Virus record (IMG/VR): IMGVR_UViG_3300042519_002211
Span: 1-24,393 of that record
DNA: 24,393 nt
Direction: 5' to 3' (one strand)
DNA from: a virus
Lineage: Duplodnaviria; Caudoviricetes
Translations under genes and position numbers: made by a program
Shown here: one piece after another, positions 1,228 through 14,489 of the stretch
Position numbering within the stretch: position 1 is the first letter of the stretch
Layout of the letters: every line of letters begins with the position of its first letter
Notes under the pieces: model-generated
The model's database searches: none
What the model was told of the DNA's origin: nothing
What the model saw: only the letters and a program-made list of their open reading frames with translations

Positions 1228-1313
1228 TGGTGCTCTCGATAGGACTCGAACCTACATGTGCGTTTAAGCGATGGTTTAGGAAACCACTGACCGTCCAATT
1301 GGACCACGAGAGC
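1228..1313 (-). tRNA. tRNA-Arg(CCT) with long variable region
   Basis: GCTCTCG/CGAGAGC-A-CCA; GTGGT-TTCCTAA-ACCAT; variable region CGCTTAAACGCACAT. Confidence 0.85.
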
Positions 1314-1318
1314 GTAAA

Positions 1319-1390
1319 TGGCAGAGCCGGAAGGTAACGCTCCCTCGTCCAGAGTTTTGGAGACTCTGTTGATGACTTCATCACGGCTCT
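1319..1390 (-). tRNA. tRNA-Trp(CCA), atypical (minimal D loop, T loop AGCGTTA)
   Basis: AGAGCCG/CGGCTCT-G-CCA; AGAGT-CTCCAAA-ACTCT. Confidence 0.82.
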
Positions 1391-1400
1391 ATAAATTAAT

Positions 1401-1533
1401 CCATTGACTTCCGACTCGAACGGACTCGTCGGCTTTTGGACCGGCTCGGTACGAGTATCTTTCCGTGGCCTTTGGAAGCTTAACTCGTGTTAGTCTTGTT
1501 ACAGACAACATCATCCAAGATGCTTAATCAATG
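1401..1533 (-). ncRNA. enlarged tRNA-like RNA (8-bp acceptor, 4-bp T stem, multi-helix insert, no CCA)
   Basis: CATTGATT/AGTCAATG; D-like stem AGCATC/GATGTT; T arm TCCG-TTCGAGT-CGGA; internal ACGAGT/ACTCGT helix. Confidence 0.6.
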
Positions 1534-1536
1534 AAA

Positions 1537-1613
1537 TGGGGCGCTAGACGGGAATCGAACCCGCTCACCAAGTTCCACAAACTTGTGTGCTAGACCGTTA
1601 CACCACAAGCGCC
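1537..1613 (-). tRNA. tRNA-His(GTG) with encoded G-1
   Basis: G-GCGCTTG/CTAGCGC-C-CCA; CAAGT-TTGTGGA-ACTTG. Confidence 0.92.
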
Positions 1614-1618
1614 ATAAA

Positions 1619-2410
1619 TTATTTTTGTTTGAAGTATAGAAACGACCGCTTCAACGCAACAACAAACTCTTTGTATCCATCAACCATTTTTTTATACTGT
1701 TCGTCTGTTAATGAGTAACTTTTCCTGAGTCGCTCCGAGTTTTCTCCAAAGTTTACATAGTTGGTAATTTTAGCATTACCCTTGTTGTAAAACTCGGCTT
1801 TAAATTTATCAAAGTCCAGTTGATTATCATTCGGAAACTTTTTTAAGTATTGATACGCATGTTGCTTCGCGTGCGCTTTTAATTCGCCGGGATGTAGCTG
1901 GTAGTCCATCCACTTCACTAAAATGTTTTGCTCATTTTCGTCTTCGCCGGTACCGCTATCAACTGCGTGTTGAACCTCATGTTGTAAAGATATTTTATAT
2001 GTGTCAAAATCCGTCAACATTTTTTCTACGTTGATGACCAATTCAACTTTTATACCTTGGTAAGAATTAAATTCGGCATTAGAGTTTCCAAAGACTGAGA
2101 ACACAATTTCTATTTTCTTTCTTATTTTTGGCAATACCTTTATTAACTCGTCCGGTAATTCTACTTCAAGAGACTTCAACCCCTTCTTAATTTTTACACG
2201 TCTGTCCGCTGGAAAGTTGCTGGGCGGGTTATACTGTTCCCGAAACCATTGCATGAAATTTTGTTTAGTTATTTTAGAATGAAGCGCCTCGCCCGTAACA
2301 TCCTTCAACACGTCTCTAAACACAACGTATAAATATTTTAAACCTTTGTTCTGCTCTGGCGTTAAGTCCTGCTCGTTCATTATCTGTTCCACGATAGTCT
2401 TTAATTTCAT
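1619..2410 (-). CDS. putative zincin-like metallopeptidase (HExxH), probable virion protein
   Basis: HEVQH motif plus downstream E (GELKAH); N-terminus MKLKTIVE; TATTTATT just upstream. Confidence 0.65.
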   Translation of the reverse strand: MKLKTIVEQIMNEQDLTPEQNKGLKYLYVVFRDVLKDVTGEALHSKITKQNFMQWFREQYNPPSNFPADRRVKIKKGLKSLEVELPDELIKVLPKIRKKIEIVFSVFGNSNAEFNSYQGIKVELVINVEKMLTDFDTYKISLQHEVQHAVDSGTGEDENEQNILVKWMDYQLHPGELKAHAKQHAYQYLKKFPNDNQLDFDKFKAEFYNKGNAKITNYVNFGENSERLRKSYSLTDEQYKKMVDGYKEFVVALKRSFLYFKQK

Positions 2411-2447
2411 ATGTATAATAAATATATATCGATACTTATATTAACAC

Positions 2448-2777
2448 ATGCAATTCACAACAAATAGAATCTATCCCATCGCCGCATCTTTCAGAAAAGC
2501 CGATGGGTTTACATCCGGCTCATTAAGCTTTAGTTTTATAACCGGCGACGTTGTTAATTTCAATTGTTTTATGGGCGACGTGGTGTATGTTGATAAACCG
2601 GGAGTGTTAACTGCGACTAGCCCAGTATACGACATGGGACCATTTTATTATACAATAATCGGGCAGAACGAAGCAACCAATACTAATATCGCTATAACTT
2701 TAAATTTTGACCGAGACATTTGCGCATCTTACGTCGGAACTTTAGGTGAAAAGGTGTGGTTCCGCGCTAAACCATAA
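2448..2777 (+). CDS. hypothetical protein (beta-rich)
   Basis: 109-aa ORF divergent from 1619-2410, TACTTATA motif at 2433-2440. Confidence 0.65.
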   Translation: MQFTTNRIYPIAASFRKADGFTSGSLSFSFITGDVVNFNCFMGDVVYVDKPGVLTATSPVYDMGPFYYTIIGQNEATNTNIAITLNFDRDICASYVGTLGEKVWFRAKP

Positions 2778-2780
2778 AAT

Positions 2781-2858
2781 TGGTACAGGTGGTGAGATTT
2801 GAACTCACAGTCTTCTGGTCCCAAACCAGACGCGATGACCAAGTTACGCTACACCTGT
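2781..2858 (-). tRNA. tRNA-Pro(TGG)
   Basis: ACAGGTG/CACCTGT-A-CCA; TCTGG-TTTGGGA-CCAGA. Confidence 0.92.
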
Positions 2859-2884
2859 ATATGCTAGTAATAAATATAACACTG

Positions 2885-3000
2885 GCTAAATTTTCGACGT
2901 GATTGGTATGCGTCGGACCACCAAGGGGCTACCCTCATTTGAGCAGGAACACTCACCCAGAGTTGCGCATTATTAAGAGGCGCTGAGTGACAATTATCAA
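2885..3000 (-). ncRNA. candidate structured RNA
   Basis: Helices CACTCA/TGAGTG, GCGC/GCGC, CGACG/CGTCG; TATTTATA motif immediately upstream (3004-3011). Confidence 0.4.
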
Positions 3001-3063
3001 TTTTATAAATAAACCTTTCCGTTATCTGTTTACCGGGCTTTTTTACTTATAAAACTAAATTAA

Positions 3064-3144
3064 TTCAATGCACCCAAGCAGACGAACGATGCACCGTTAC
3101 AGAACGCTGAATTATCTTTGGGCTATACTGTTTTTTGCATTGAA
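3064..3144 (-). ncRNA. closed-stem RNA (ACAGTA variant of the ACAGCA family)
   Basis: Terminal stem TTCAATGCA/TGCATTGAA, ACAGTA after the 5' strand, inner CCCAA/TTGGG. Confidence 0.45.
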
Positions 3145-3145
3145 A

Positions 3146-3221
3146 TGGTGGGAAACCTCGGATTCGAACCGAGAACCTTCGCTGTGTAAGAGCGTTGCGC
3201 TAACCGTTGCGCCAGTCTCCC
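3146..3221 (-). tRNA. tRNA-Val(TAC)
   Basis: Canonical cloverleaf, loop CTTACAC, CCA encoded. Confidence 0.93.
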
Positions 3222-3230
3222 GTAAAAATA

Positions 3231-3308
3231 TCGAAGAAGGGTGGATTTGAGCCGCCGACCTCACGGACGTTGAAACACCGGCGCTCTTTCTCTGAACTAC
3301 TTCTTCGA
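3231..3308 (-). pseudogene. tRNA-like element with distorted anticodon arm, no CCA
   Basis: TCGAAGAAG/CTTCTTCGA acceptor, D arm GTTC/GAGC, T loop CTCAAAT; anticodon region TGTTTCAACG has no clean 7-nt loop. Confidence 0.6.
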
Positions 3309-3311
3309 AAA

Positions 3312-3387
3312 TGGTGGACCATGCCGGGATTGAACCGGCCACCTCATGCTTGCAAAGCACGCGCTCTACCAAATGAGCTAATGGCCC
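3312..3387 (-). tRNA. tRNA-Ala(TGC)
   Basis: Canonical, G3:U70, loop TTTGCAA. Confidence 0.95.
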
Positions 3388-3390
3388 ATA

Positions 3391-3576
3391 CTAGATGCTT
3401 TTTTACTTTGCGGCTGTGATAACGGACATATTGAGTGTTTTCCGCATGGCACCGTAAGCTTGATCCATTGCTGGATTTCTACCTACGACATATTATTCAT
3501 ATGTTCGCTCCTATCGATTACTCGACGGTTGCTACCTTAGAACCGTTATTTAGTATAACTTTGCTGTTAGCATCTA
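3391..3576 (-). ncRNA. ACAGCA closed-stem RNA (long member)
   Basis: TAGATGCT-A-ACAGCAA ... AAAAAAGCATCTAG; internal hairpin AACGG..CCGT and TGCGG/CCGCA helix. Confidence 0.6.
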
Positions 3577-3675
3577 AACCGATAGTTTTGCGTGTTACAT
3601 CGTCTCAACACGGATAACCCGCACCACTATCAAAATTGTTCAACATATTATAACATTCTTCCTATATTTATAATC

Positions 3676-4218
3676 ATGCTATTACTGGAAATTGTACGAC
3701 AACTGTTGGTGGAAAGAATGTCATTTACTGATTTATTCAAGTCTTCTACTCCCGCAAGAAAAGACCGAGCTAAGGGAATGAAAAGTCAGTCGCTGCCAGT
3801 TATGGCAAGTCGCGGCCCGAAGCATTGGAATTTTAGATTTACGAGTGCACCCAACAATAACACCACAGGTAAAAGTTGGAAAGGTAGAATCGGATTTCCC
3901 AAGTCTACCGGTGTCGCCCGACCAGATAGACTTATGTGCGAAGTTGACTGTGAATGCCCGGATTATAAATACCGTTGGGCTTGGGCCAACAATCGTAAAG
4001 ATGCTGGTCCGATTGGGTTTGGTAGTTTTAACAAATGTATTGATCAAGCGCCAAGAGAAACTAACCCGACGAATCGCCCCGGTTTATGCAAACACTTGCT
4101 TGCTCTGAAAGACGGGCTACGCCAGAAATTAAAAGAAAGTCAGCAACCAACACTCGAAGCCAAGCTAGCTGAGATTGTGGATAAAAATCCTCAGTTCACG
4201 GTAACGTACGAGGAATGA
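3676..4218 (+). CDS. SWIM-type zinc-finger phage protein
   Basis: CECPDY...CKHL motif; start reassigned to ATG 3676, just after TATTTATA (3665-3672). Confidence 0.75.
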   Translation: MLLLEIVRQLLVERMSFTDLFKSSTPARKDRAKGMKSQSLPVMASRGPKHWNFRFTSAPNNNTTGKSWKGRIGFPKSTGVARPDRLMCEVDCECPDYKYRWAWANNRKDAGPIGFGSFNKCIDQAPRETNPTNRPGLCKHLLALKDGLRQKLKESQQPTLEAKLAEIVDKNPQFTVTYEE

Positions 4219-4221
4219 GAT

Positions 4222-5184
4222 ATGATTAAATTAAAAGATTTACTTAACGAGATTCAGTCGAAACCATTGACTGTGTATCATGGAACAGGTTCGAAATTTA
4301 AAAAGTTTGACTTGAAAAAAACTACTCAAGGTATTATATGGTTTACGTCTGATAAAAACAAAATATTGTCAAACGACGCGGGTGCACAAGGTAAAGGTTA
4401 CTTAATTACTGCCGAAGTCGCCATCAATAATCCTGCTGGGTGGGATGAATACGACAAGCTTGGACTTGGTCAGATTAAAGGTAATGGATTTGATGGAGTA
4501 ATCCTAAAAGACGCTGATGGCCAATTTGACTGTTTTGTATTTTCTCCACGGCAAATAAAAATAATAAAATCGGAAAAAATACCAGATCATCAATTGAGCG
4601 AAGAAGATTATAAAGGTCAACATCTTGCGCCGGATAAAGATGGCGGAGCGCCATTGTACGATTTAACAAAGATTTATCCAGACGATGTTTATTCATCGAA
4701 GGCCGAACAATATTATGGGGATCGATCAACTGAATACAGTGATGCTGAGACCGTATCTATAATACAAAACGCAAGAGGACCCCTAAACAAAAACAAGCAA
4801 ATCAAAATATATAGGGCAGTGCCAAACATCAATAAAGAGACGGAGAATAAAATTAAAGATATATCAACCGTTGCTGGTTACATCATGAAATTTGGATTTT
4901 TACCAGTAGGCAGTAAATATTCCGATTTATATCCCGAGTTAAAATATAACAAAGACGCTTTGCTTGAAAAATTGTTTGCCGAGATGGACATGCTCAGATC
5001 GAAGAAATTGGAAGGTTTAAAAATCAATCCCGGTGATTGGGTGACAATAAATAAAAGATACGCTATTAGTCACGGCAGAAATACTCTTATGGGAGATTAT
5101 AAAATCTTAACAAAGACTGTTCCGGCCAAACATCTGTTTACTACCGGGGACAGTTTGCACGAATTTGGATATGATCCAAGTTAA
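4222..5184 (+). CDS. putative ADP-ribosyltransferase-fold protein (two ART-like domains), probable virion/injected protein
   Basis: VYHGT..FD..IWFT..GFDGVI (domain 1); IYRAV..NPGDWVT..YA..HG (domain 2); N-terminus MIKLKDLLNE. Confidence 0.6.
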   Translation: MIKLKDLLNEIQSKPLTVYHGTGSKFKKFDLKKTTQGIIWFTSDKNKILSNDAGAQGKGYLITAEVAINNPAGWDEYDKLGLGQIKGNGFDGVILKDADGQFDCFVFSPRQIKIIKSEKIPDHQLSEEDYKGQHLAPDKDGGAPLYDLTKIYPDDVYSSKAEQYYGDRSTEYSDAETVSIIQNARGPLNKNKQIKIYRAVPNINKETENKIKDISTVAGYIMKFGFLPVGSKYSDLYPELKYNKDALLEKLFAEMDMLRSKKLEGLKINPGDWVTINKRYAISHGRNTLMGDYKILTKTVPAKHLFTTGDSLHEFGYDPS

Positions 5185-5186
5185 AT

Positions 5187-5263
5187 TGGTGGAAAGGATG
5201 GGAATCGAACCCACAACACGGACATTGCAAATGTCTGTCGCTATCCTTAGTACATGCCTCCCC
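5187..5263 (-). tRNA. tRNA-Ala(TGC), atypical D arm
   Basis: GGGGAGG/CCTTTCC-A-CCA with G3:U70; GACA-TTTGCAA-TGTC; C8. Confidence 0.82.
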
Positions 5264-5269
5264 AAAATT

Positions 5270-5396
5270 TTTGTCTGAAAAAACGCTGCTGTGTAGCTAT
5301 ACTGAGATTAGTTGTCCACGTCCCAATGTGCATAGTCAAATCTACCAGCATACCCTAGCACCGGACAATTAGAGGTGCATGTTCATAACAGACAAA
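5270..5396 (-). ncRNA. candidate pseudoknotted RNA
   Basis: Terminal TTTGTCTG/CAGACAAA; hairpin GCACC/GGTGC whose loop TTGTCC complements GGACAA inside the TATGCTG/CAGTATA arm; ACAGCAG near the 3' end. Confidence 0.55.
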
Positions 5397-5400
5397 TTGA

Positions 5401-5481
5401 ATACGGTGTTCTACCATGTTGAACTACCCCAAAATACTCGAACGCGCTCTGGGGAGAGACCTCGAACCTCCATTTCCGTAT
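5401..5481 (-). ncRNA. circularly permuted tRNA-like RNA
   Basis: ATACGG, T arm GGAGG-TTCGAGG-TCTCT, closed acceptor CCCCAGAG..TTTTGGGG, D arm GTTC-AACATGGTA-GAAC, CCGTAT. Confidence 0.75.
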
Positions 5482-5488
5482 CTTAAAG

Positions 5489-5565
5489 TGGTGGGCAAAG
5501 TGGGATTCGAACCCACGACCTGCGCGTTATCAACACGCTGCTCTAACCAATTGAGCTACATGCCC
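5489..5565 (-). tRNA. tRNA-Ile(GAT)
   Basis: Canonical, loop TTGATAA. Confidence 0.95.
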
Positions 5566-5572
5566 GGAAATA

Positions 5573-5671
5573 CAAGACGGAGAGATAAGGGATTTAGGCT
5601 CCCTTTTTAAGTAGCCTGCCTTTCGGCGTTACTTCAATGTAGTTATATTTTTTGTTTGCTGTGTCCGTCTT
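5573..5671 (-). ncRNA. ACAGCA closed-stem RNA
   Basis: AAGACGGA-C-ACAGCAAAC ... TCCGTCTTG; internal GCC-GAAA-GGC and AGGGA/TCCCT hairpins. Confidence 0.62.
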
Positions 5672-5674
5672 AAA

Positions 5675-5749
5675 TGGTAGTCGTAGAAGGATTTGCACCT
5701 CCACCGCACGGTAATCAGCCATGCGTGCTATCTGTTACACTATACGACC
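5675..5749 (-). tRNA. tRNA-Ile(GAT), atypical (T37, T loop TGCAAAT, no D-loop GG)
   Basis: GGTCGTA/TACGACT-A-CCA; CATGG-CTGATTA-CCGTG. Confidence 0.82.
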
Positions 5750-5756
5750 ATAAAAT

Positions 5757-5894
5757 TTTTGTACAAACCGGTGTTTTCTTCCTTACTTCGTGTCCACGGT
5801 ACGTTTTCGTGTTATGCTGCCCAAATATCGTCTGAGTGCATTATACCCTTTTCAGTTTACAACAGTAGACGTACTCTACTTGATTTGTACAAAA
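5757..5894 (-). ncRNA. candidate structured RNA
   Basis: Terminal TTTTGTACAAA/TTTGTACAAAA; hairpin AGTAGA-GTACG-TCTACT with loop complementary to downstream CGTAC. Confidence 0.45.
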
Positions 5895-5971
5895 TGGTGG
5901 TCACCGTGGGACTCGAACCCACCTGATCTGCAATGTCGATGCAGTGCCTTAACCCCGAAGACTAGACGACC
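5895..5971 (-). tRNA. tRNA-Val(GAC), C33
   Basis: CTGCA-TCGACAT-TGCAG; CCA encoded. Confidence 0.85.
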
Positions 5972-5977
5972 ATGAAA

Positions 5978-6295
5978 TTATTTGCCTCTTGGAGCAGCAT
6001 CGCCGGAATGAAGGCTTTTACCTTTACCATCCCCAAATATTTGCTCATACGCCTCAACCCTAGTTAAAAATTTGCTGGTTTTCGTATCAAAGAACCCATC
6101 TTCTATTTCATTTCCTCCATCATACGAATCCAAATCATCAACTGTAAAATTATAGTTTGGGTATTTGTCATTCAATTTTTCGACCGCGTGAAAATGTGTT
6201 TTTCCCGTAAATATTTCTCCGTCTGGCATTGCGATTGCAGCCAACAGTCCGTACTTAGATGCTGCACCTTCCAATATCAGACTCTTTAGTTTCAT
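5978..6295 (-). CDS. hypothetical protein, probable virion protein
   Basis: 105 aa, N-terminus MKLKSLILE, TATTTATA at 6300-6307. Confidence 0.75.
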   Translation of the reverse strand: MKLKSLILEGAASKYGLLAAIAMPDGEIFTGKTHFHAVEKLNDKYPNYNFTVDDLDSYDGGNEIEDGFFDTKTSKFLTRVEAYEQIFGDGKGKSLHSGDAAPRGK

Positions 6296-6394
6296 GTATT
6301 ATAAATATAATTGAACTGTTATAATAAAAGGAGAGTATAGGAGATTTATCAGCTTAACTAGTATATTTTTGCTTTAGTCCCGTCAACTCTATAG

Positions 6395-6468
6395 TGGCTG
6401 GGATACATGGATTTGAACCATGAATAGACGAGTCAAAGTCGTCTGTGTTACCATTACACCATATCCCA
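6395..6468 (-). tRNA. tRNA-Gln(TTG)
   Basis: TGGGATA/TATCCCA-G-CCA; GACGA-CTTTGAC-TCGTC. Confidence 0.95.
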
Positions 6469-6482
6469 ATATCTATACTAAA

Positions 6483-6611
6483 TGGTGGACCGTGGTGGAA
6501 TCGAACCATAGACTTATTCTCGGTAATTATTCTGAATAACTTGTCTATTTTTACCGTCTGCGATGACTACAACCGGTTTCGTCATCGACGCATTACTTAT
6601 GCTAATGGCCC
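6483..6611 (-). ncRNA. Ala-acceptor tRNA-like RNA without a standard anticodon arm
   Basis: GGGCC/GGTCC-A-CCA with G3:U70, T loop TTCGATT; centre is CGATGAC/GTCATCG and CGGTAA/TTACCG helices. Confidence 0.65.
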
Positions 6612-6615
6612 ATAA

Positions 6616-6690
6616 TGGTGGATCGTCCCGGTACTGCCCCGAGTTCTCAAGGTTAAGAGCCTAGAGCATCACTTTATATGCTTACAATCC
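6616..6690 (-). tRNA. tRNA-Lys(CTT), atypical (A8, T loop GGCAGTA)
   Basis: GGATTGT/ACGATCC-A-CCA; loop CTCTTAA. Confidence 0.8.
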
Positions 6691-6696
6691 ATAAAT

Positions 6697-6783
6697 TGGT
6701 GGTGTGGAAGGGACTCGAACCCCCGGTGGTTTTTACACGACAGCTTAAAAGGCTGCACTATTCGCCGCTATAGGAACCACACC
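6697..6783 (-). tRNA. tRNA-Lys(TTT) with long variable arm
   Basis: GGTGTGG/CCACACC-A-CCA; GCAGC-CTTTTAA-GCTGT; GTG-TAAAAAC-CAC arm. Confidence 0.85.
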
Positions 6784-6791
6784 ATAAAATA

Positions 6792-6915
6792 TTTGATAGA
6801 CCAAGAAGAATCGAACTTCTGCCTCATATAACCCATCTCCGGAATTACGCCTGAGTCGAACAGGTCTGGATTCGGCGTTGCCGTGCGTGCTACCACTACA
6901 CTATAGTATACCAAA
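6792..6915 (-). ncRNA. tRNA-like RNA whose anticodon loop is replaced by an insert with a second T-loop hairpin
   Basis: D arm GTGT-AGTGGTA-GCAC, T arm AGAAG-TTCGATT-CTTCT, internal CCTG-TTCGACT-CAGG; no CCA. Confidence 0.65.
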
Positions 6916-6921
6916 ATTGAA

Positions 6922-7020
6922 TTTGACGAATAAGCCTCTATTCGTGACTTATCTCCGGGTCATACGGACTTTTACCGTCTCCACATAGGAGCACTCATGC
7001 TGCGGATTTTTATCGTCAAA
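6922..7020 (-). ncRNA. multi-hairpin closed-stem RNA
   Basis: TTTGACGA/TCGTCAAA ends; GCAGCA; hairpins CTCC/GGAG, ACGG/CCGT, TGAC/GTCA, GAATA/TATTC. Confidence 0.5.
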
Positions 7021-7060
7021 AATGTTATTATAATCACTGCATTATATTTATAATTACTAT

Positions 7061-8407
7061 ATGTACATCAAACTGCTACCTTTATTACTGGAAAGTCGTA
7101 TTTCCGACTTCAAAGATAAATATGCTAATCTTCCCGTCTGGATGCAGCACTTACTTATAGATGGTGACTTTACCCCCAACAAGAAGTATCTAGATTGGCT
7201 TGGAAAGATCGTCACCGCTGCCGACAAAATTGAGAGTGAGGCATTTGCCAATGATTTATTGGAAAGAATCGAAGTCCATTTCAATAAGTTATCGAACATT
7301 GACATCAATAAATTCAAAACGTATGAAGAATTTGTCAAAGCCACTGATGACGCTAGCAAGAACCTTAGCAAAAGAGAAAGATTGGCCGCAGACACCGAAC
7401 TGATCTACGAAGATGACAGATTTTTAATTGTCGGTCCGCGCTCACAAGATGCAGTTGGAAATTTTGCAGCCGGAAAAACCAACTGGTGTATTTCAAGCAG
7501 CGAAGATTATTGGCAGGATTACTACTCTGAAAACACCGTAATTCTTATACATGACCGAGAATCTGAAAAACCAATGGCTCGATTGGCGTTGCTCTCTCCG
7601 TCCGGGGCGAACAGTCGTGATTGGGCATTGTATAATTCTCAGGACCATACCATGTCTAGACCGGGGGAATATTTATCAGAAATATTGCCGGAAGAAGCAA
7701 TGGAAAAATTAACGGAATACCTTGATGACGATGAAAGCAATATTTCAGACAGACAGCAAGAAGTGGAAGAAAAGAAAAACGAAGAGTGGGTAAAAGATAA
7801 TGGCGACGAGTTTGTTCCTAAACTGTCTACGCTAATAGCAGAACATTATAACATCCTAGACGACGGTCGTATAGAGGACGACCTAGAAGAATATCTAGGA
7901 ACCGAAGATTACGATGCGCTGGGGAAAGACTTAGCGTGGTGGTGCATCTCTTATCATGGAAGAGACAATGGTATATTCCTCTCTGAAGATTTGACCAAGT
8001 TCTTGAAAAGTTACGAAGGAGATTATCTCGACCAAATCACCAACGCTATAACACACGTTGTGAATATTAAAACTTACGGCAAACCAATGTCAAATATTGT
8101 TCGCGGTGTATTGGACGATTCTAGTTACGAAAACTTGGTGAGATTATCCGATTTCAATCTAGAAAGTGTGTTAGGGAATGCGATGAAAAAATATCAAGCA
8201 TATCGAAATTCTTCAAATCAAACATACATGTTCGCCGACCCACAGACCCAAGAAAAATTTATTCCAAAAGATATTAACGATATAGTTGAAATGTTAACTT
8301 TTGGTGGCGCGGAGGAAGTTGCTAATTATATCAGATTGCGCAGTAAGCAAAAAATCCGCGAGCACAGAATCAAGTTGAAAAACTTAATTCGTAAATGGAA
8401 AACATAA
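7061..8407 (+). CDS. hypothetical acidic phage protein (NWCISS motif), probable virion protein
   Basis: 448-aa ORF; N-terminus MYIKLLPLLLE; TATTTATA at 7045-7052. Confidence 0.85.
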   Translation: MYIKLLPLLLESRISDFKDKYANLPVWMQHLLIDGDFTPNKKYLDWLGKIVTAADKIESEAFANDLLERIEVHFNKLSNIDINKFKTYEEFVKATDDASKNLSKRERLAADTELIYEDDRFLIVGPRSQDAVGNFAAGKTNWCISSSEDYWQDYYSENTVILIHDRESEKPMARLALLSPSGANSRDWALYNSQDHTMSRPGEYLSEILPEEAMEKLTEYLDDDESNISDRQQEVEEKKNEEWVKDNGDEFVPKLSTLIAEHYNILDDGRIEDDLEEYLGTEDYDALGKDLAWWCISYHGRDNGIFLSEDLTKFLKSYEGDYLDQITNAITHVVNIKTYGKPMSNIVRGVLDDSSYENLVRLSDFNLESVLGNAMKKYQAYRNSSNQTYMFADPQTQEKFIPKDINDIVEMLTFGGAEEVANYIRLRSKQKIREHRIKLKNLIRKWKT

Positions 8408-8409
8408 AA

Positions 8410-8488
8410 TGGTGGCGATAGTCGGGAGTCGAACCGACCTTTGAATATTGAGAATATCCTGTCCTTTCCAAACATAGACGATATCGCC
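8410..8488 (-). tRNA. tRNA-Glu(CTC)
   Basis: GGCGATA/TATCGCC-A-CCA; GGATA-TTCTCAA-TATTC; 8-nt T loop. Confidence 0.88.
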
Positions 8489-8500
8489 ATTTAAATATTT

Positions 8501-8772
8501 TTGAAGAGTGTGCTATTACGCCAAAAGAGCTAACACCGTTTCGCGGCCAAATATATAACAACTATATTTGCGCTTACATTTTCGGCACCGAGCTACAGTC
8601 AATTCCGTAGTTCTTACCGGTTCACGTCTGAATTGCCTCCACGCGAACCATTATAGTTGGTAATGGGAAATGCAGAATTCAAGAATTCAAGAATTCATCG
8701 CTGCACTTTTACTAGCTTGGAGTACGGACTCTACTCATTATAGGATTGCTGCCTCTAGGCCAACCTCCTCAA
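8501..8772 (-). ncRNA. ~270-nt multi-helix RNA candidate
   Basis: Terminal TTGAGGAG/CTCTTCAA; helices GAGTA/TACTC, TGCAG/CTGCA, GGTTCGCGT/ACGTGAACC, CTACGG/CTGTAG, CAAATATA/TATATTTG. Confidence 0.55.
8674..8697. repeat. 3x tandem AGAATTCA
   Basis: Direct 8-mer repeat within the candidate ncRNA. Confidence 0.9.
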
Positions 8773-8888
8773 CAAAAAGTTAAAAAACGTACTTGTGTTC
8801 TATTGTATCTTCGCAGACACCCACTAATACATCTTCGGTCAGTTTTTTCGGACGTATACATACAAAGAAATACCGTTTGCAAAAATTA

Positions 8889-9011
8889 TTTATCGTTTCA
8901 GGTCGCTCAATTACTTCATTTCATTGTAGGAATCGAACCTACGCCAAGGAACTTAACCCTGCACTTCCACCGCGCTCACTACTCTTTTTCACTGCCCTCA
9001 ATGACGATAAA
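8889..9011 (-). ncRNA. closed-stem RNA containing a T-arm module
   Basis: TTTATCGT/ACGATAAA ends; CATT/AATG stacked on GTAGG-TTCGATT-CCTAC. Confidence 0.5.
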
Positions 9012-9012
9012 T

Positions 9013-9087
9013 TGGTAGCCCCACCGGGTCACGATCCCGGCTCTTCTGCTTGAAAGGCAGACGAACTCGCCATTATTCTATAGGGCC
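9013..9087 (-). tRNA. tRNA-Glu(TTC)
   Basis: TCTGC-CTTTCAA-GCAGA; T loop ATCGTGA (A54). Confidence 0.9.
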
Positions 9088-9091
9088 AATT

Positions 9092-9162
9092 GTGCAGCGT
9101 TCTACCTGACTAAACTACCCCCGTTTTACTGGTGGAGAGGATTTGAGCCTCTGTTTCTGCAT
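9092..9162 (-). ncRNA. circularly permuted tRNA-like RNA
   Basis: TGCAG, T arm AGAGG-CTCAAAT-CCTCT, closed acceptor CCACC..GGGGG, D arm GTTT-AGTCAGGTA-GAAC, CTGCA. Confidence 0.72.
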
Positions 9163-9170
9163 TCAAAAAA

Positions 9171-9230
9171 CAAGACGCATTTTTAGTTCATGTATAGGAT
9201 GAATTTTTTTAGGATTGCTGTATGCGTCTT
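9171..9230 (-). ncRNA. ACAGCA closed-stem RNA (minimal member)
   Basis: AAGACGCAT-ACAGCAATCC ... AAAAATGCGTCTTG. Confidence 0.65.
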
Positions 9231-9233
9231 AAA

Positions 9234-9315
9234 TGGTGCTCTCGATAGGATTTGAACCTACATTTTAATTTCCGTTACATGCCCAGACGTTCGAAGCGTC
9301 CGCTGATACGAGAGC
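9234..9315 (-). tRNA. tRNA-Arg(TCG)-like, D arm absent, long variable region
   Basis: GCTCTCG/CGAGAGC-A-CCA; only TATCAGC before GGACG-CTTCGAA-CGTCT; 23-nt variable region. Confidence 0.7.
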
Positions 9316-9321
9316 GTAAAG

Positions 9322-9396
9322 TGGTGCAGTACGGGGGATTCGAACCCCCACCCTCACGCTTCGCAAGCGTTTGCTCGTCCATTGAGCTTCTACTGC
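9322..9396 (-). tRNA. tRNA-Arg(GCG)
   Basis: ACGC-TTGCGAA-GCGT; canonical D/T arms; CCA. Confidence 0.87.
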
Positions 9397-9403
9397 ATTA
9401 AAA

Positions 9404-9477
9404 TGGCGGGAGTAGCGAGACTCGAACTCGCTTAACTAGCGTGACAAGCTAATGTAATACCCATATACCATACCCCC
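9404..9477 (-). tRNA. tRNA-Asp(GTC)
   Basis: TTAGC-TTGTCAC-GCTAG; G73-CCA. Confidence 0.92.
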
Positions 9478-9543
9478 ATAAAGTTTCACACAGCCATTAT
9501 TGACATTGATATAAATCAAGAGGACTACTGTGTATGTTTTAAA

Positions 9544-9619
9544 TGGTCCGGATGACAGGACTCGAACCTGCATAATCTCGCTTCCAAGGCGAGTCGCCAA
9601 CCTTTGACACCACATCCGG
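9544..9619 (-). tRNA. tRNA-Pro(TGG), A37
   Basis: CCGGATG/CATCCGG-A-CCA; CTCGC-CTTGGAA-GCGAG. Confidence 0.87.
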
Positions 9620-9633
9620 ATATAAATTGAAAT

Positions 9634-9716
9634 TGGTAGCAGAGGTAAGAATCGAACTTACCATACCTTTCGGCTGCGTTATGAGCGCAGTTAGCGTCCC
9701 GTGGCTTGTCTCTGCT
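9634..9716 (-). tRNA. tRNA with CAT anticodon (Met or Ile2), long variable arm, atypical D arm
   Basis: AGCAGAG/CTCTGCT-A-CCA; CTGCG-CTCATAA-CGCAG; CC-GAAA-GG arm. Confidence 0.8.
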
Positions 9717-9722
9717 ATAAAA

Positions 9723-9798
9723 TGGTGGTGCCTGCGGGAGTCGAACCCGCAACCTACAGATTAAAAGTCTGCTGCTCTGCCGATTGAGCTAAAACACC
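9723..9798 (-). tRNA. tRNA-Lys(TTT)
   Basis: Canonical, GCAGA-CTTTTAA-TCTGT. Confidence 0.95.
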
Positions 9799-9806
9799 AT
9801 AAATTT

Positions 9807-9953
9807 TTTAATGAGAGTGTGAGTTCCACTCTGTTATGATACTTTCGTATCGACACATACCGGTTGTTTCCAACGGCTATATTACATCGTTCTTGCGGAA
9901 CTTTGTTCTACGATTTCGGTATGCCGCTTGCATGCTTTCTCAGCTACATTAAA
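9807..9953 (-). ncRNA. GNRA-capped multi-helix RNA candidate
   Basis: CATACCG/CGGTATG, ATCGT/ACGAT, GTTG-GAAA-CAAC, GATAC-GAAA-GTATC, TGAGA/TCTCA, terminal TTTAATG/CATTAAA. Confidence 0.62.
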
Positions 9954-9954
9954 T

Positions 9955-10047
9955 TGGCTGTATCGGCTGGTGACGCACCAGCATTTGAGTTTCCTCATTG
10001 GTGGATTAACAGTCCACTACGGCAAGCTAACTATCCGTGTCGATACA
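9955..10047 (-). tRNA. tRNA-Asn(GTT), long variable arm, T loop TGCGTCA
   Basis: TGTATCG/CGATACA-G-CCA; GTGGA-CTGTTAA-TCCAC; GAG-GAAA-CTC arm. Confidence 0.8.
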
Positions 10048-10056
10048 ATATAAAAT

Positions 10057-10130
10057 TGGCTGAGTCACGTGGAATCGAACCACGACCATCTGTTTCAGAG
10101 ACAGAGGCACTACCACTATGCAATAACTCA
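10057..10130 (-). tRNA. tRNA-Gln(CTG)
   Basis: TCTGT-CTCTGAA-ACAGA; G73-CCA. Confidence 0.92.
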
Positions 10131-10138
10131 ATATAAAA

Positions 10139-10216
10139 TGGTGGCCGAGGTGGGACTCGAACCCACAGAATCTACGTTTTGAGTGTAGCACGTTTATCCA
10201 GTTACGTCACACGGCC
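10139..10216 (-). tRNA. tRNA-Leu(CAA), short variable loop
   Basis: Loop CTCAAAA; variable region ATTCT only. Confidence 0.88.
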
Positions 10217-10282
10217 AAAATACTGACGCGTTTATCGTAGGCGTCTCACGTCCGTCTAACGGAAGGTCACGGTGGACCTAAA

Positions 10283-10358
10283 TGGTGTGGCCTGCTGGAC
10301 TCGAACCAGCTTCTCGTCGTCTTCAGCGACACGTGAGCACCCGCTTCACCAAAGCCAC
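10283..10358 (-). tRNA. tRNA-Phe(GAA)
   Basis: TGTCG-CTGAAGA-CGACG; CCA. Confidence 0.9.
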
Positions 10359-10532
10359 ATAATCACGATTGCTTTTCCAACCGCGTATTTCGTTATAATT
10401 TTTACCACAAAGCAACGTTGTAACGAAAAACTCGTCGCTTATCAAAATTGAAAGTCGCGCCAAGAAAAGTGGCTGTTGGTTATTAACCAACCGTTTCATT
10501 GAATTTATGCAACTCATTGTTTCGACCTAAAA

Positions 10533-10610
10533 TGGTAGCCAAGGTGGGACTCGAACCCACAGAATTTAGTTTCTAAAACTAACACGTTTATCCAGTTACG
10601 TCACATGGCC
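10533..10610 (-). tRNA. tRNA-Leu(TAG), short variable loop
   Basis: TTAGT-TTTAGAA-ACTAA; body nearly identical to Leu(CAA) at 10139. Confidence 0.9.
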
Positions 10611-10619
10611 ATAAAATTA

Positions 10620-10726
10620 TTTGTTATGGATGGATTCGAACCATCGGCATCTGCTTATAGAGAACTTTTTCGGTGTCTTATACCATCATATCTCGTCAGT
10701 GATCTTCCTCTGAACTACACAACAAA
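10620..10726 (-). ncRNA. tRNA-like RNA with extended, anticodon-less central arm
   Basis: TTTGTTGTG/CATAACAAA acceptor, D arm, T arm GATGG-TTCGAAT-CCATC; centre CTG..GAGA..GGT/ACC..TCTC..CAG; no CCA. Confidence 0.62.
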
Positions 10727-10727
10727 A

Positions 10728-10801
10728 TGGTGCGCGGTGGGGGAATCGAACCCCCGTATCAACATTGGCAATGTCGTATTCTACCACTAAACTAACCACG
10801 C
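10728..10801 (-). tRNA. tRNA-Gly(GCC)
   Basis: CGACA-TTGCCAA-TGTTG; A73. Confidence 0.92.
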
Positions 10802-10814
10802 ATATAAAAACTGA

Positions 10815-10940
10815 GAATCATAATGGGACTCGAACCCACAATCATCAAACTCTATTCAAGTTTATATGTTTGACCGCCAGTTTTCGCCGTGCTCTTGATT
10901 TGGCTACTGACTCGCGCCTTTACCATTTGGTATATGATTC
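10815..10940 (-). ncRNA. tRNA-like RNA with two long central arms
   Basis: GAATCATA/TATGATTC acceptor, D loop AAATGGTAAA, T arm GTGGG-TTCGAGT-CCCAT, CAGT/ACTG and TCAAAC/GTTTGA helices; no CCA. Confidence 0.62.
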
Positions 10941-10944
10941 AAAT

Positions 10945-11021
10945 TGGAGTCCGTAACTGGAGTCGAACCAGCATAAATGTCTTTTGCAGAGACCGCCCTG
11001 ACCTTTCGGGCACACACGGAC
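10945..11021 (-). tRNA. tRNA-Cys(GCA)
   Basis: GTCT-CTGCAAA-AGAC; U73-CCA. Confidence 0.9.
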
Positions 11022-11045
11022 ATATAATTTTATCTAGTAAATTGT

Positions 11046-11118
11046 TATAGGCGAATTCCACTAACGCAATAATTGGAATGTCTTCGCTGAATTATAATTC
11101 AGAATATTGCGACCTACA
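11046..11118 (-). ncRNA. candidate pseudoknot RNA directly 3' of tRNA-Thr
   Basis: TGTAGG/CCTATA; crossing helices CGCAATA/TATTGCG and ATTCCA/TGGAAT; hairpin CTGAAT/ATTCAG. Confidence 0.5.
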
Positions 11119-11121
11119 AAT

Positions 11122-11208
11122 TGGAGCCGATGGTGGGACTCGAACCCACGTAGGGATTACTCCCGCCGCTTTACAAAAGCGGTGCTGTTGCCACTGAGCC
11201 ACATCGGC
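11122..11208 (-). tRNA. tRNA-Thr(TGT) with long variable arm
   Basis: GCCGATG/CATCGGC-T-CCA; CCGCT-TTTGTAA-AGCGG; GGGA-GTAA-TCCC arm. Confidence 0.88.
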
Positions 11209-11219
11209 ATAAATTAAAT

Positions 11220-11293
11220 TGGCTGGGATATATGGAATCGAACCATAACCTCTTGTTTCAAAGACAAGGGCACTACCACTATGCAATATCCCA
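11220..11293 (-). tRNA. tRNA-Gln(TTG)
   Basis: CTTGT-CTTTGAA-ACAAG; G73-CCA. Confidence 0.93.
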
Positions 11294-11295
11294 AT

Positions 11296-11325
11296 AAAAA
11301 AGACGGAGTTTAAGCTTCGTCTTTT
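11296..11325. terminator. possible bidirectional intrinsic terminator
   Basis: AAAAGACGGAG-TTTAAG-CTTCGTCTTTT flanked by A/T runs. Confidence 0.5.
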
Positions 11326-11344
11326 GTTTTAAATTGTTTGTGTG

Positions 11345-12022
11345 TTATTTAGCGTCCATCTCGTCGTCGACCTCAAGCATCGCCGATTTTGCAAAGACGT
11401 TTTTTACCACGCCAGTAAATATTTTATTTACATACTTTCGAGAATTGTTTGGTACCGGAACTTTATCCGCTTCTTCCAACTCCGGTGCTAAATGTCTGGC
11501 CAGTGGGTCACGGTTGACTTTTCCTTTAGATTTATTTAAGCCCGGTGCAGGAGATGATGCTGCCGGTGCTGCCGGTGCTGGTGCAGCCTTCTTGGCTGGC
11601 TTTTTTGCCGGTGCTGTAGGCGCTGCTGCCGGTTTCGCTTCTGGTTCGGTGGGTGCTGCTGACTTCTTCGCCTTAATCGCCTCAATTTTATTACCAAGTT
11701 CAGCCGCTTCTGCTTCAATATATGCCGCACGTAGTAATTTTTTTAGTCCCGCCTCAAGCTTTTCTTTCAAATCTTGAACTATTTGTTCTGCGGATTGCTT
11801 TGCTGCCGCCTGTGTCGGAGCGGGCGAATTTTTTATATCGGCGCGTTTATCGTGCATCTTTGAAAATCTGTCGTAGTGTGAACCACCCGAATCTGGTCCC
11901 GTCGTTTTTCCACCGGCAAATTGTTTTTTGACGCCTTGCCATAGGTCAGAACCCCAACCTTCTTCCATTGCTACTTCTTGAACAGTTTCGGCTATCAAAT
12001 TTTTGAGTTCTTGTTTATCCAT
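11345..12022 (-). CDS. hypothetical protein with Ala/Pro/Lys-rich linker, probable virion protein
   Basis: 225 aa; N-terminus MDKQELKNLIAE; TATTTATA at 12046-12053. Confidence 0.85.
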   Translation of the reverse strand: MDKQELKNLIAETVQEVAMEEGWGSDLWQGVKKQFAGGKTTGPDSGGSHYDRFSKMHDKRADIKNSPAPTQAAAKQSAEQIVQDLKEKLEAGLKKLLRAAYIEAEAAELGNKIEAIKAKKSAAPTEPEAKPAAAPTAPAKKPAKKAAPAPAAPAASSPAPGLNKSKGKVNRDPLARHLAPELEEADKVPVPNNSRKYVNKIFTGVVKNVFAKSAMLEVDDEMDAK

Positions 12023-12083
12023 AGGGTTTATAAATTGTTGTAATATATAAATAGCGAATAAACCTCAAAAAAATGCATTAAAA

Positions 12084-12169
12084 TGGTGGCCCATGTCGGT
12101 ATCGAACCAACCCAGCCCGAGGGCTTCGCATTTACAGTGCGAACCGCGTCCTTAGCGGTATAATGAGCC
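12084..12169 (-). tRNA. tRNA-Tyr(GTA)
   Basis: TCGCA-CTGTAAA-TGCGA; variable arm AGCC-CTCG-GGCT. Confidence 0.9.
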
Positions 12170-12246
12170 AAAAAATTTGGTGTACTCCGTACATAGTGGT
12201 TGCTATATATCTTCGGAATGGTTGGAACACCAAACCTAGTACAAAT

Positions 12247-12323
12247 TGGAGCGGGGTGGGGGATTCGAACCCCCACATCAAGTTTGGAAAACTCGTATGC
12301 TAACCGTTAAACATCAACCCCGC
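12247..12323 (-). tRNA. tRNA-Gly(TCC), first tRNA of the array
   Basis: GCGGGGT/ACCCCGC-T-CCA; CGAGT-TTTCCAA-ACTTG. Confidence 0.94.
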
Positions 12324-12332
12324 GTTTTAAAA

Positions 12333-12797
12333 TTACTCCTTAGCAGCATGCGATTTTATATAATTCAAGTTTAGTTGAATTGCAACGTCGTGCTTGGCAA
12401 CGTCGGTTTCTAGTTTATTTAATCTAGAGTCTAGTTTTTCAAAAATCAATGCACTCTTTTCCCACTTAATAATCTCTGCCATTTCGTGCTTCTCAAAGCT
12501 ACTAATTGTTGCTGCAATCGCCGCTGCATTTGATCGTTGATACTCAGCCGTGTTTCTTTGCTCGTCGGTTAAAGCGGTAATTGCCTTGGTAAGATGCGTG
12601 AATGCTTCTTTTTGATCGTTTGACAAGTTTACTATAATAGTCTTTTGCTCAGAATTTTGCGACTTCCAGTCGTCTCTCGAAATGTAGCGCCCGTCTAAAA
12701 AGAAGAATAGGGCCGCTACCAATATCGGCAATATAAACCACTTTAATAGATCCAGTTTCTGAGCATTGGTTTTTAGGAAAGATTCAACAGATGGCAT
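12333..12797 (-). CDS. single-TM coiled-coil membrane protein (possibly lysis-related)
   Basis: WFILPILVAALFFFL helix then heptad-rich region; start reassigned to MPSVES after TATTTATA (12816-12823). Confidence 0.7.
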   Translation of the reverse strand: MPSVESFLKTNAQKLDLLKWFILPILVAALFFFLDGRYISRDDWKSQNSEQKTIIVNLSNDQKEAFTHLTKAITALTDEQRNTAEYQRSNAAAIAATISSFEKHEMAEIIKWEKSALIFEKLDSRLNKLETDVAKHDVAIQLNLNYIKSHAAKE

Positions 12798-12974
12798 AGG
12801 TTTATGTCGATTATTTATAAATATATTAGACATATTCTAATCTTACACATTCGCATCATTATATATGAAATAACGATCCCATTCCGAACCGCGTGGAGGT
12901 TGTGTATATATCGGAACAAGAAGAAAACAACTCAACATGCTATTACGCATATCTTATTGCTGCTTTCTTCAACT

Positions 12975-12987
12975 TTATAAAAGAACT
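12975..12987 (-). promoter_or_regulatory. boxA-like antitermination site
   Basis: AGTTCTTTTATAA in the non-coding leader, resembling rrn boxA (GYTCTTT core). Confidence 0.4.
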
Positions 12988-13147
12988 CTAACGAACCCCG
13001 TACAAACCAGTGACTTTAGCACTCGTTCCGTCGGGGGGTTTGGACTTCTAACGTCCGTACATCCTTCGTTGTTTACTTTTTGCTTCGGTGCAAAAACTTG
13101 TTAAAAACCGCTAGACTAAAATTGATTTGTTACACTTAACTTTCTGT

Positions 13148-13175
13148 ACCTTACTCTTTTTTTATCTTCCGTCAA
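13148..13175 (-). promoter_or_regulatory. sigma70-like promoter (TTGACG-16-TAAGGT)
   Basis: Second copy of a duplicated promoter unit facing the tRNA array. Confidence 0.55.
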
Positions 13176-13239
13176 CTACTTTCTTAAAAAACTTTTTGTT
13201 ACTTATTTACCGACTTTACTTTTCGAACTTGATTTGCTG

Positions 13240-13267
13240 ACTTTATTCTTTTTTTAACTTCTGTCAA
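13240..13267 (-). promoter_or_regulatory. sigma70-like promoter (TTGACA-16-TAAAGT)
   Basis: First copy of the duplicated unit. Confidence 0.55.
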
Positions 13268-13289
13268 ATACTTTCTTAAAAACTTACTA

Positions 13290-13323
13290 AATAAAAAACC
13301 CACCCCTTTTTCTTGGGTGGGCC
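13290..13323 (-). terminator. intrinsic terminator of the putative attenuator
   Basis: CCCACCC-AAGAAAAAG-GGGTGGG followed by TTTTTTATTT. Confidence 0.85.
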
Positions 13324-13355
13324 TTCTAGGTTGGTAAATTTTTATTTTACTCCTA

Positions 13356-13469
13356 TTATGCCGCACCCCTCGTATTATCGCCTTCGACGGCTCCGAGTGT
13401 AGGTTGCGTAATAAAGCAACGGCTCCACTTGGAGTTGTTTGTTAGCGATTTCTGTGAATACTGTTTCAT
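13356..13469 (-). CDS. putative attenuator leader peptide MKQYSQKSLTNNSKWSRCFITQPTLGAVEGDNTRGAA
   Basis: 37 codons ending TAA TAG, lying between a promoter and a terminator; last codons overlap the antiterminator arm. Confidence 0.7.
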   Translation of the reverse strand: MKQYSQKSLTNNSKWSRCFITQPTLGAVEGDNTRGAA

Positions 13470-13504
13470 TGAATTGTTAAGACTGCTCTTAATTAATAAA
13501 TAGG

Positions 13505-13533
13505 ACTATGCCCGCAAAAAAATCAAAAGTCAA
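13505..13533 (-). promoter_or_regulatory. sigma70-like promoter (TTGACT-17-CATAGT) for the leader
   Basis: -35 at 13528-13533, -10 at 13505-13510, 35 nt upstream of the leader ATG. Confidence 0.6.
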
Positions 13534-13610
13534 TAACTTTTTTCGAAAAATCTCACTTTTTTCGCAAACTTCGTCGTCAGGGACTTTTTATAACGATATT
13601 TATACCCAGC

Positions 13611-13979
13611 ATGTTCACCTATAAGCAGTTTTTTTCAAGCCTTTTGACTGAGATGTACTATGGCAAGACTCACAAGGACACCGACTTGCCCGACAATCGC
13701 CCGTATGGCTTCATGGTATATCCCGATGGCACGTTTGGAATTGCCCATTCAATGATGAGTCACGATGATTTGGTCGGTGGCAGGAGCAACATGAACAAAA
13801 TTGTGTTTTTGGGCGGTGTGAGACTGGCAATTGGAGCAGACAACTCCAACGAACACTACTTTGCCGAGTATATAAAGGCGCGGGCAAAGCCACAGGCACT
13901 CAGGACAGCAAAAGACTTAGCGTCTTGGTATGGACTACCATTGAAATTTGAAGAATATGACGCAAACCGATTTGGTTAA
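13611..13979 (+). CDS. hypothetical protein, probable internal head protein
   Basis: N-terminus MFTYKQFFSSLLTE; TATTTATA at 13597-13604. Confidence 0.8.
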   Translation: MFTYKQFFSSLLTEMYYGKTHKDTDLPDNRPYGFMVYPDGTFGIAHSMMSHDDLVGGRSNMNKIVFLGGVRLAIGADNSNEHYFAEYIKARAKPQALRTAKDLASWYGLPLKFEEYDANRFG

Positions 13980-14000
13980 AAACTTAAATTATTACCTAAC

Positions 14001-14489
14001 ATGTTTACCTATAAGGAATTTTTTAACTATCTGTATGAAAATGACGCAGAGCACCAAAAAACTCTAAGTGATACCGGGTTTTGGGGGAAGCGCGGGGCTG
14101 GATGTATATTTTTAGCAGCAGACACAAAACGAATATGTTTACCACTGCGTTCGCGTAGTGTGGAACAACCAAATACATGGGGAGTGTGGGGAGGGGCACT
14201 TGATGGAGACGAAGACCCCGAAGAAGCAGTAAAACGAGAAGCTCAAGAAGAGACGGGGCATCGTGGTACAGTACAATTGATACCACTCCACGTGTTCTCT
14301 AAGGGAACGTTCAAGTATTATAATTTTTTGGCAATCGTTCCACACGAATTTTCTCCACAGCTAAATTGGGAAACGGCAGACTTTGTTTGGACAACTTTTG
14401 GAAAATGGCCTTCCCCTTTACATTTCGGTCTGGAATCGCTGATTAAAAATTCAGGAGATAAAATACAACAAGCGATTACAACGCTTTGA
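14001..14489 (+). CDS. Nudix hydrolase
   Basis: Nudix box GALDGDEDPEEAVKREAQEETG; N-terminus MFTYKEFFNYLYE. Confidence 0.92.
   Translation: MFTYKEFFNYLYENDAEHQKTLSDTGFWGKRGAGCIFLAADTKRICLPLRSRSVEQPNTWGVWGGALDGDEDPEEAVKREAQEETGHRGTVQLIPLHVFSKGTFKYYNFLAIVPHEFSPQLNWETADFVWTTFGKWPSPLHFGLESLIKNSGDKIQQAITTL

Follow-up and report, generated by a model that had tools for sequence, protein, structure and literature searches.

A conserved leader ORF and predicted RNA switch ahead of phage tRNA genes: a putative ribosome-controlled attenuator responsive to shortage of nearly any amino acid

We analysed a 24,393-nt stretch of viral DNA, referred to here as the window. It is a whole virus record and occurs in lake-water metagenomes. 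As well as an RNA ligase, clamp loader and DNA polymerase, the window encodes 33 tRNA genes, called by ARAGORN, in a minus-strand array that reaches the contig end (positions 36-12323). The cassette described here precedes the array on the same strand. It starts with P1, a σ70-type promoter (13533-13505) in which TTGACT (13533-13528) and CATAGT (13510-13505) are separated by 17 nt. TATTTAT, a phage gene-start motif, lies directly 3′ of the -10 box (13502-13496). A leader ORF of 37 codons plus TAA follows (13469-13356). The sense codons occupy 13469-13359, with TAA at 13358-13356 and TAG at 13355-13353. The last three sense codons are segment 2 (13368-13360), the 5′ arm of an antiterminator (2:3; 13368-13315) with inner helices 13355-13352/13330-13327 and 13350-13346/13338-13334. 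Its 3′ strand (13322-13315) is shared with an intrinsic terminator (3:4; 13322-13293), whose U-tract runs to 13293. When both conformations were folded, energies were -21.3 kcal/mol for the antiterminator and -17.9 kcal/mol for the terminator. Beyond the terminator is P2, a σ70-type promoter-like unit (13267-13240), and its tandem copy P3 (13175-13148; 88% over 43 nt). The promoter, the ORF and the two downstream promoter-like units had all been recognised in the original prediction, made from the letters of the window, and the antiterminator pairs exactly as described there. Its account of the leader was also correct: 32 distinct codons, 19 amino acids, no His, the listed Ser, Gly and Ala codons and a TAA TAG end. 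No codon is used more than twice. Our analysis adds two elements. The first is a stem inside the ORF (13434-13391), formed by 13434-13426 and 13399-13391. The second, enclosed by this stem, is segment 1 (13408-13402), the T-Q-P codons. It is able to pair with segment 2 and is a candidate protector or pause hairpin.

Upstream, on the plus strand, are ORFs for a 122-aa protein and a NUDIX hydrolase. A common 37-nt repeat at their starts (13598-13634 and 13988-14024) gives the two proteins near-identical N-termini.

Relatives of the cassette were sought with several patterns. The first DNA pattern matched 17 stretches and, by blastn, only the phage's own contig matched. The 166-aa (see below) and 122-aa neighbour ORFs, used as bait, returned only an identical contig among viral contigs and nothing among metagenome contigs. 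Three lake DNA runs contained positions 12700-13800 with one substitution relative to the window, plus a short contig of a relative; an RNA-labelled run, X19, gave no contig. In the relative's contig, from run X17, conservation covers the 3′ half of the ORF, and a pattern built from this half found the whole cassette in 15/15 viral stretches matched. A pattern of promoter, TATTTAT and ATGA, with no other ORF sequence, matched 41 viral stretches. The cassette was present in 37 and the other four were discarded as unrelated. Of 38 stretches matched in a metagenome scan, 19 were homologs and 19 were discarded as unrelated. L109 was excluded from all counts because its 5′ end is missing. Together, 74 redundant matches reduced to 29 distinct ORF sequences, with nucleotide identity as low as 54% and amino-acid identity as low as 35%. 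A peptide scan (33 loci) added four new ORF variants, all close kin of already known clades, for 33 distinct in total. Detailed analyses cover the first 29.

Cassette carriers are T4-like giant phages related to that of the window. One, G001, is a complete 297-kb genome with T4-like tail tube, baseplate, gp32 and prohead protease families. No bacterial homolog was found in 185,579 genomes with one DNA pattern, which had 0 matches, and one peptide pattern. The sole peptide-pattern match, 11 residues inside a GC-rich gene, is a chance hit without ATG, terminator or tRNA. The leader peptide has no PHROG family and the leader no Rfam match. By inspection of G001, no second leader cassette precedes its second tRNA cluster (900 nt inspected), and among 28 short ORFs with at least 19 amino acids there is none except the leader itself. 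Other genes of G001 (L113-L127) include tmRNA, the second tRNA cluster at 196-198 kb, two RNA ligases and RlaP. The phage also encodes an Acb1-like protein, peptide deformylase, heme oxygenase with bilin reductase, and CsgF/CsgG. Such a gene set looks suited to repairing RNA and supporting translation.

The leader frame is open in 33/33 distinct variants, which are 37-43 codons long. ORF lengths are 111, 114, 120 or 129 nt, and indels inside the ORF are 3-nt only. Outside it, lengths vary by any number: the 5′ UTR is 15-35 nt and segments 2 and 3 are 44-59 nt apart. Shuffling bases within codon positions produced a mean of 8.0 stops, and never zero in 10,000 rounds, under a null that ignores kinship. 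Both alternative frames contain a stop in 29/29 variants. Because dN/dS is 0.63 by the Nei-Gojobori method and 0.66-0.73 in IQ-TREE, the ORF appears to be translated with weak constraint on the peptide sequence. A Shine-Dalgarno motif precedes only 20/340 G001 ORFs. Hence, the lack of one ahead of the leader ATG does not count against the ORF.

Some residues of the leader peptide do not change. W15, F19, Q22 and P23 are invariant in 29/29 variants and an Ile is present in 28/29. TnaC- and ErmL-type leaders are arrest peptides that stall the ribosome in response to a ligand. Similarly, W15, F19, Q22 and P23 could act in the exit tunnel to stall on one ligand or antibiotic, and folding predicts that segment 2 would stay unoccupied by a ribosome stalled near P23. 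Several features make such an arrest peptide improbable. In L020 the Ile is replaced by Asn and a codon is inserted between F and Q, while the distance from W to the start differs by one among variants. The conserved columns mostly each hold a different amino acid, the QP codons double as segment 1, and the dN/dS values are those given above.

We next consider the RNA. The antiterminator is predicted in 21/21 distinct fragments, at -17.4 to -25.2 and on average -20.8 kcal/mol. Mean energies across relatives are -16.7 kcal/mol for the terminator and -15.2 kcal/mol for the 1:2 hairpin. On the alignment, 89% of antiterminator cells are paired (2/500 shuffles). In L020, L033, L046 and L102 the inner helices are rebuilt from different sequence. 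Antiterminator halves pair more stably with their own partner than when swapped (-20.8 vs -17.2 kcal/mol), the own partner ranking first in 5/21, but covariation in the core comes from both-sided changes at 2/12 pairs. The ORF-internal stem covaries, with a score of 0.146 vs 0.091 and 0/500 shuffles as high. Its register is the best of seven and was chosen after a slide control; the register offset by two columns was 55.7% paired and gave no signal. The 1:2 hairpin is present in an RNAalifold consensus of 23 sequences. We considered that it might protect segment 2 and so make termination the default. This was not borne out at equilibrium, where 2:3 outcompeted 1:2 in constrained folds of 15/15 representatives. 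Kinetic trapping of segment 2 by the 1:2 hairpin could still occur.

To model ribosome position, the transcript as far as segment 4 was folded at equilibrium with an assumed ribosome footprint of -15 to +13 nt. In 15/15 representatives 2:3 formed when the ribosome was absent or had its A site on any of codons 1-30. From codon 31-33 onward it was lost in 15/15. In the 43-codon leader of L020, 2:3 returned with the ribosome at codons 42-44. Since 2:3 forms without a ribosome, the predicted default is read-through, and a ribosome would have to arrive in time for termination. The attenuator logic originally proposed, in which a ribosome reaching the stop melts the antiterminator, is supported to this extent. 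The claim that a stall at almost any codon permits read-through fits codons 1 to about 30-32. Termination is predicted once the ribosome reaches codon ~31-33, so a penultimate Val would escape sensing, and in 15/29 variants Val occurs only at that codon. For illustration only, and not as evidence, a race model with assumed rates raised read-through from ~4% to 18% when one early codon cost an extra 1 s, and to 58% when it cost 5 s.

If slow decoding is the signal, the amino acids encoded by the leader become important. Of 29 peptides, 11 contain 20 amino acids, 17 contain 19 and one contains 18. The four later-found variants contain 20 each. For comparison, at least 19 occur in 38/2036 (1.9%) of 37-codon windows in G001 genes. 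In 5000 stop-free nucleotide shuffles of the window ORF alone, 2.1% had at least 32 codons (p=0.021) and 0.26% matched it for codons and amino acids jointly (p=0.0026). Only the leader ORF combines both features among 207 ATG-started, stop-free 37-codon windows of the contig. Taken as a single sequence, the diversity of the window leader is unusual, not decisive.

Tyr occurs exactly once in 29/29 peptides, at column 4 (13 variants), 9 (10) or 15 (6). Arg shifts among columns 2, 10, 18, 19, 27, 32, 33, 35 and 36, Val also moves, and in L055 Cys is gone from column 19 and present at column 27. With 11 or 15 representatives, column shuffles gave p≤0.0008 for coverage. In a tree-aware per-column simulation with two trees, p was 0.017-0.019 for the share of peptides with at least 19 amino acids and 0.049-0.057 for mean coverage. 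The mean of this null is already 18.8 amino acids because most conserved columns each hold a different residue. Such one-residue-each columns match what a sensor would need, but many near-invariant columns are also paired in RNA stems, and RNA pairing and descent fix some of them. Part of the coverage pattern may hence come from RNA constraint and common descent, the tree-aware values being borderline. Coverage is also incomplete. Leu is absent from the whole peptide in 8/29 and Glu in 6/29. Within the sensing window, up to column 34, coverage falls to 18-20 in 27/29 variants; Val is missing in 15/29, Leu in eight and Glu in seven.

These data bear on a second alternative. The attenuator may read overall ribosome progress, as set by initiation, coupling, antibiotics or host shut-off, with amino-acid breadth a by-product of RNA stems and ancestry. 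Given default read-through in the folding, failed initiation would also switch it on. In addition, the covarying ORF-internal stem accounts for many invariant bases, a random 37-codon frame has at least 19 amino acids with p 0.037, and the tree-aware value for mean coverage and the absences of Leu and Glu point the same way. The behaviour of Tyr argues otherwise. One Tyr at three exclusive positions had p≤0.0002 in the simulation, although this statistic is post hoc; for Tyr at least once in all 29, p was 0.03-0.05. Synonymous variation at the His, Pro, Phe and Ser columns, TCN/AGY swaps included, also speaks against a by-product of RNA pairing. We consider this alternative unlikely.

The original prediction described the leader as sampling codons. 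Broad amino-acid coverage is indeed kept. The excess of distinct codons is modest: a mean of 30.7 compared with 28.8 (phage usage) or 29.9 (uniform usage) expected for the same peptides, without tree correction. Hence, amino-acid sampling fits better than codon sampling. We also asked whether the leader is a list of the array's own anticodons. This was not supported. The leader queries 20/26 anticodon types of the array in the window and 21/26 in G001, and 7/37 and 9/37 leader codons, respectively, are unread by the array via standard wobble.

The regulatory setting was examined by inspecting promoters. Between 8000 and 16000 there are 14 promoter-like sites, compared with 16.9 in shuffles. 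The P1 match alone is thus at chance level, and support for P1 comes from its conservation in relatives. TATTTAT lies no more than 45 nt upstream of 41/340 G001 ORFs (1.3% expected). At the locus it is present at P1 alone, not at the P2 and P3 units, and possibly marks a late promoter. Sigma70-like units follow the terminator in 26/28 variants with enough sequence (one unit in 22, two in four). That of L108 is doubtful, and L049 and L102 have none by consensus pattern. With a second promoter in 26/28, the switch would add to a basal level, so the original logic requires amendment: the switch probably boosts rather than gates transcription of the tRNA region. The simplest picture is an arrangement like the tandem promoters of rRNA operons, in which P2 and P3 would provide basal output and P1 a stress-dependent increment.

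A same-strand tRNA gene lies within 2 kb downstream in 25/29 variants, and the remaining four have less than 700 nt of sequence there. Every variant with ~1 kb or more of downstream sequence (25/25) leads into same-strand tRNA genes. The place of the cassette before tRNA genes is fixed while its upstream neighbour changes. With 33 open frames, 2:3 in every fragment folded and this constant position, the ORF-plus-hairpin arrangement is conserved in relatives. That the switch governs the whole tRNA array was an overstatement. Inside the array of the window there are plus-strand ORFs and a promoter-like site (8093-8064), and the contig ends where the called tRNA genes do; the G001 array has a promoter-like site at 89763. 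Such internal sites argue against whole-array control by the leader switch, whose target we infer to be the array.

The promoters also raise a third alternative. Promoter, ORF and terminator make a complete unit, and P2 is present in 26/28 variants. The cassette could then be a stand-alone gene for a small protein or small RNA with its own terminator, the array being driven by P2/P3 and the alternative hairpin not being ribosome-controlled. The stability of the whole-leader fold (z = -2.9) would suit such a gene. It is very improbable in light of the antiterminator, which is on average stabler than the terminator and was rebuilt with different sequence in four lineages. The lack of consensus P2 in L049 and L102, and the constancy of the tRNA genes with changing upstream neighbours, weigh against it too.

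On the comparative sequence evidence, the leader is a real, conserved cis-regulatory cassette. Together with the folding, this evidence makes a ribosome-controlled attenuator of some kind very likely. We think it probable that this attenuator acts on transcription at the head of the array and responds when almost any amino acid or tRNA runs short. Beyond P1 and an ORF whose last codons are segment 2, both evident in the sequence, we propose the following. Before segment 4 exists, segment 2 is predicted to pair with segment 3 and set read-through as the default. A ribosome at codon ~31-33 or the stop would cover segment 2, allowing the terminator to form and release an RNA of ~205 nt. The polymerase would win the race if the ribosome failed to initiate or lost some seconds at any of codons 1 to ~31. 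As the leader has about one of each amino acid, selection may have ensured that no single shortage is missed. P2/P3 would supply a basal level of transcription into the RNA cassette and tRNA genes, and read-through from P1 would supplement it. Such read-through may be the main route in L049 and L102, the two lineages that lack a consensus P2. There is a slightly better than even chance that the leader is a selected "pangram", a 37-codon test message with every amino acid once that gauges the decoding health of the infected cell. Starvation for any tRNA, or its cleavage by a host defence nuclease, would then increase transcription of the phage's replacement tRNAs. The connection to anticodon nucleases, raised in the original prediction, is an inference.

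Leader-peptide attenuators are known for amino-acid operons, including trp, his, leu, thr and pheA, and the multivalent ilvGMEDA and ilvBN, as outlined by Elf and Ehrenberg (PMC1183508). As in the trp and his systems of that outline, a short ORF lies between the promoter and the terminator of the cassette, the 2:3 and 3:4 hairpins are predicted to exclude each other, and 1:2 pairing is possible. A race between ribosome and polymerase, in which slow decoding gives read-through, is predicted here, and in silico the ribosome position decides the fold in 15/15 representatives. Unlike those systems, the leader has no run of regulatory codons, containing instead 18-20 amino acids with about one of each. 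Segment 2 is inside the last codons, a second promoter usually follows, and the downstream genes are phage tRNAs and RNA cassettes rather than biosynthetic enzymes. A long accessory tRNA array is also found in Anabaena PCC 7120, where the trn operon is described as induced by translational stress via the repressor TrcR (PMC10272220). Stress induction is likewise proposed here, through a cis RNA switch and leader ORF, in a phage, rather than a ribbon-helix-helix repressor of initiation. The mef/mel-type uORF attenuators, reported to sense antibiotics and control resistance genes (PMC4335068), similarly have a leader ORF where ribosome stalling would control premature termination. Our searches of the open-access literature, as distinct from subscription papers, turned up no leader-peptide attenuator described for tRNA genes or within the tRNA array of a phage.

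T-box riboswitches are terminator/antiterminator switches that respond to tRNA charging; each binds a single tRNA directly and works without translation. The cassette shares the terminator/antiterminator switch. Unlike a T-box, it has a leader ORF and is predicted to depend on translation. Consistent with this, no T-box (stem I specifier, T-box bulge antiterminator) was matched by Rfam models in 12300-14050 at E≤10.

The large tRNA sets of phages are explained by two competing views: codon bias, or replacement of tRNAs lost to starvation and host nucleases. If our reading is true, a switch that raises tRNA genes upon slow decoding would favour replacement. Leader-peptide attenuation, so far a matter of one to three amino acids and of enzyme operons, would also be extended to all twenty and to tRNA genes, and the cassette would be a compact genetic sensor of translation stress.

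Between the switch and the tRNAs are RNA cassettes and one membrane-type ORF. In the window, ~1 kb of such elements separates the terminator from the first tRNA. A structured RNA after P2/P3 (~13105-12985, minus strand) also occurs in L033, L094 and L108. At its place most other relatives (L020, L021, L040, L046 and L102) have a different conserved RNA, and neither matches Rfam. The next element is a long minus-strand hairpin (12970-12920) whose AAUAAG/UGA internal loop is kept in relatives while the stems change. It has no Rfam match and is a candidate protein-binding element. An HDV-like ribozyme fold follows at the head of the downstream transcript (12917-12843, minus strand; 25 bits, E 0.053, below the Rfam cut-off). 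The fold has P1, P3, L3, P4, GCGAA and P2 elements. Relatives score 29-33 bits and most have the core motif (e.g. L103:1959-2033, L108:1859-1925, L102:455-527). Typical theta ribozymes are described as adjoining a tRNA 3′ end (PMC10879173). Here, in contrast, the fold comes directly after the conserved hairpin, so its cleavage would fall at the 3′ end of a non-tRNA RNA lying upstream. The 166-aa ORF (12833-12333, minus strand) encodes a hydrophobic stretch and has no PHROG family. In relatives it is replaced by a ~105-aa holin-like membrane ORF. Within the window's part of the array no Ser tRNA was called, and the minus strand at 3232-3306 gives a tRNA-like Rfam match (30.3 bits) that was uncalled by ARAGORN.
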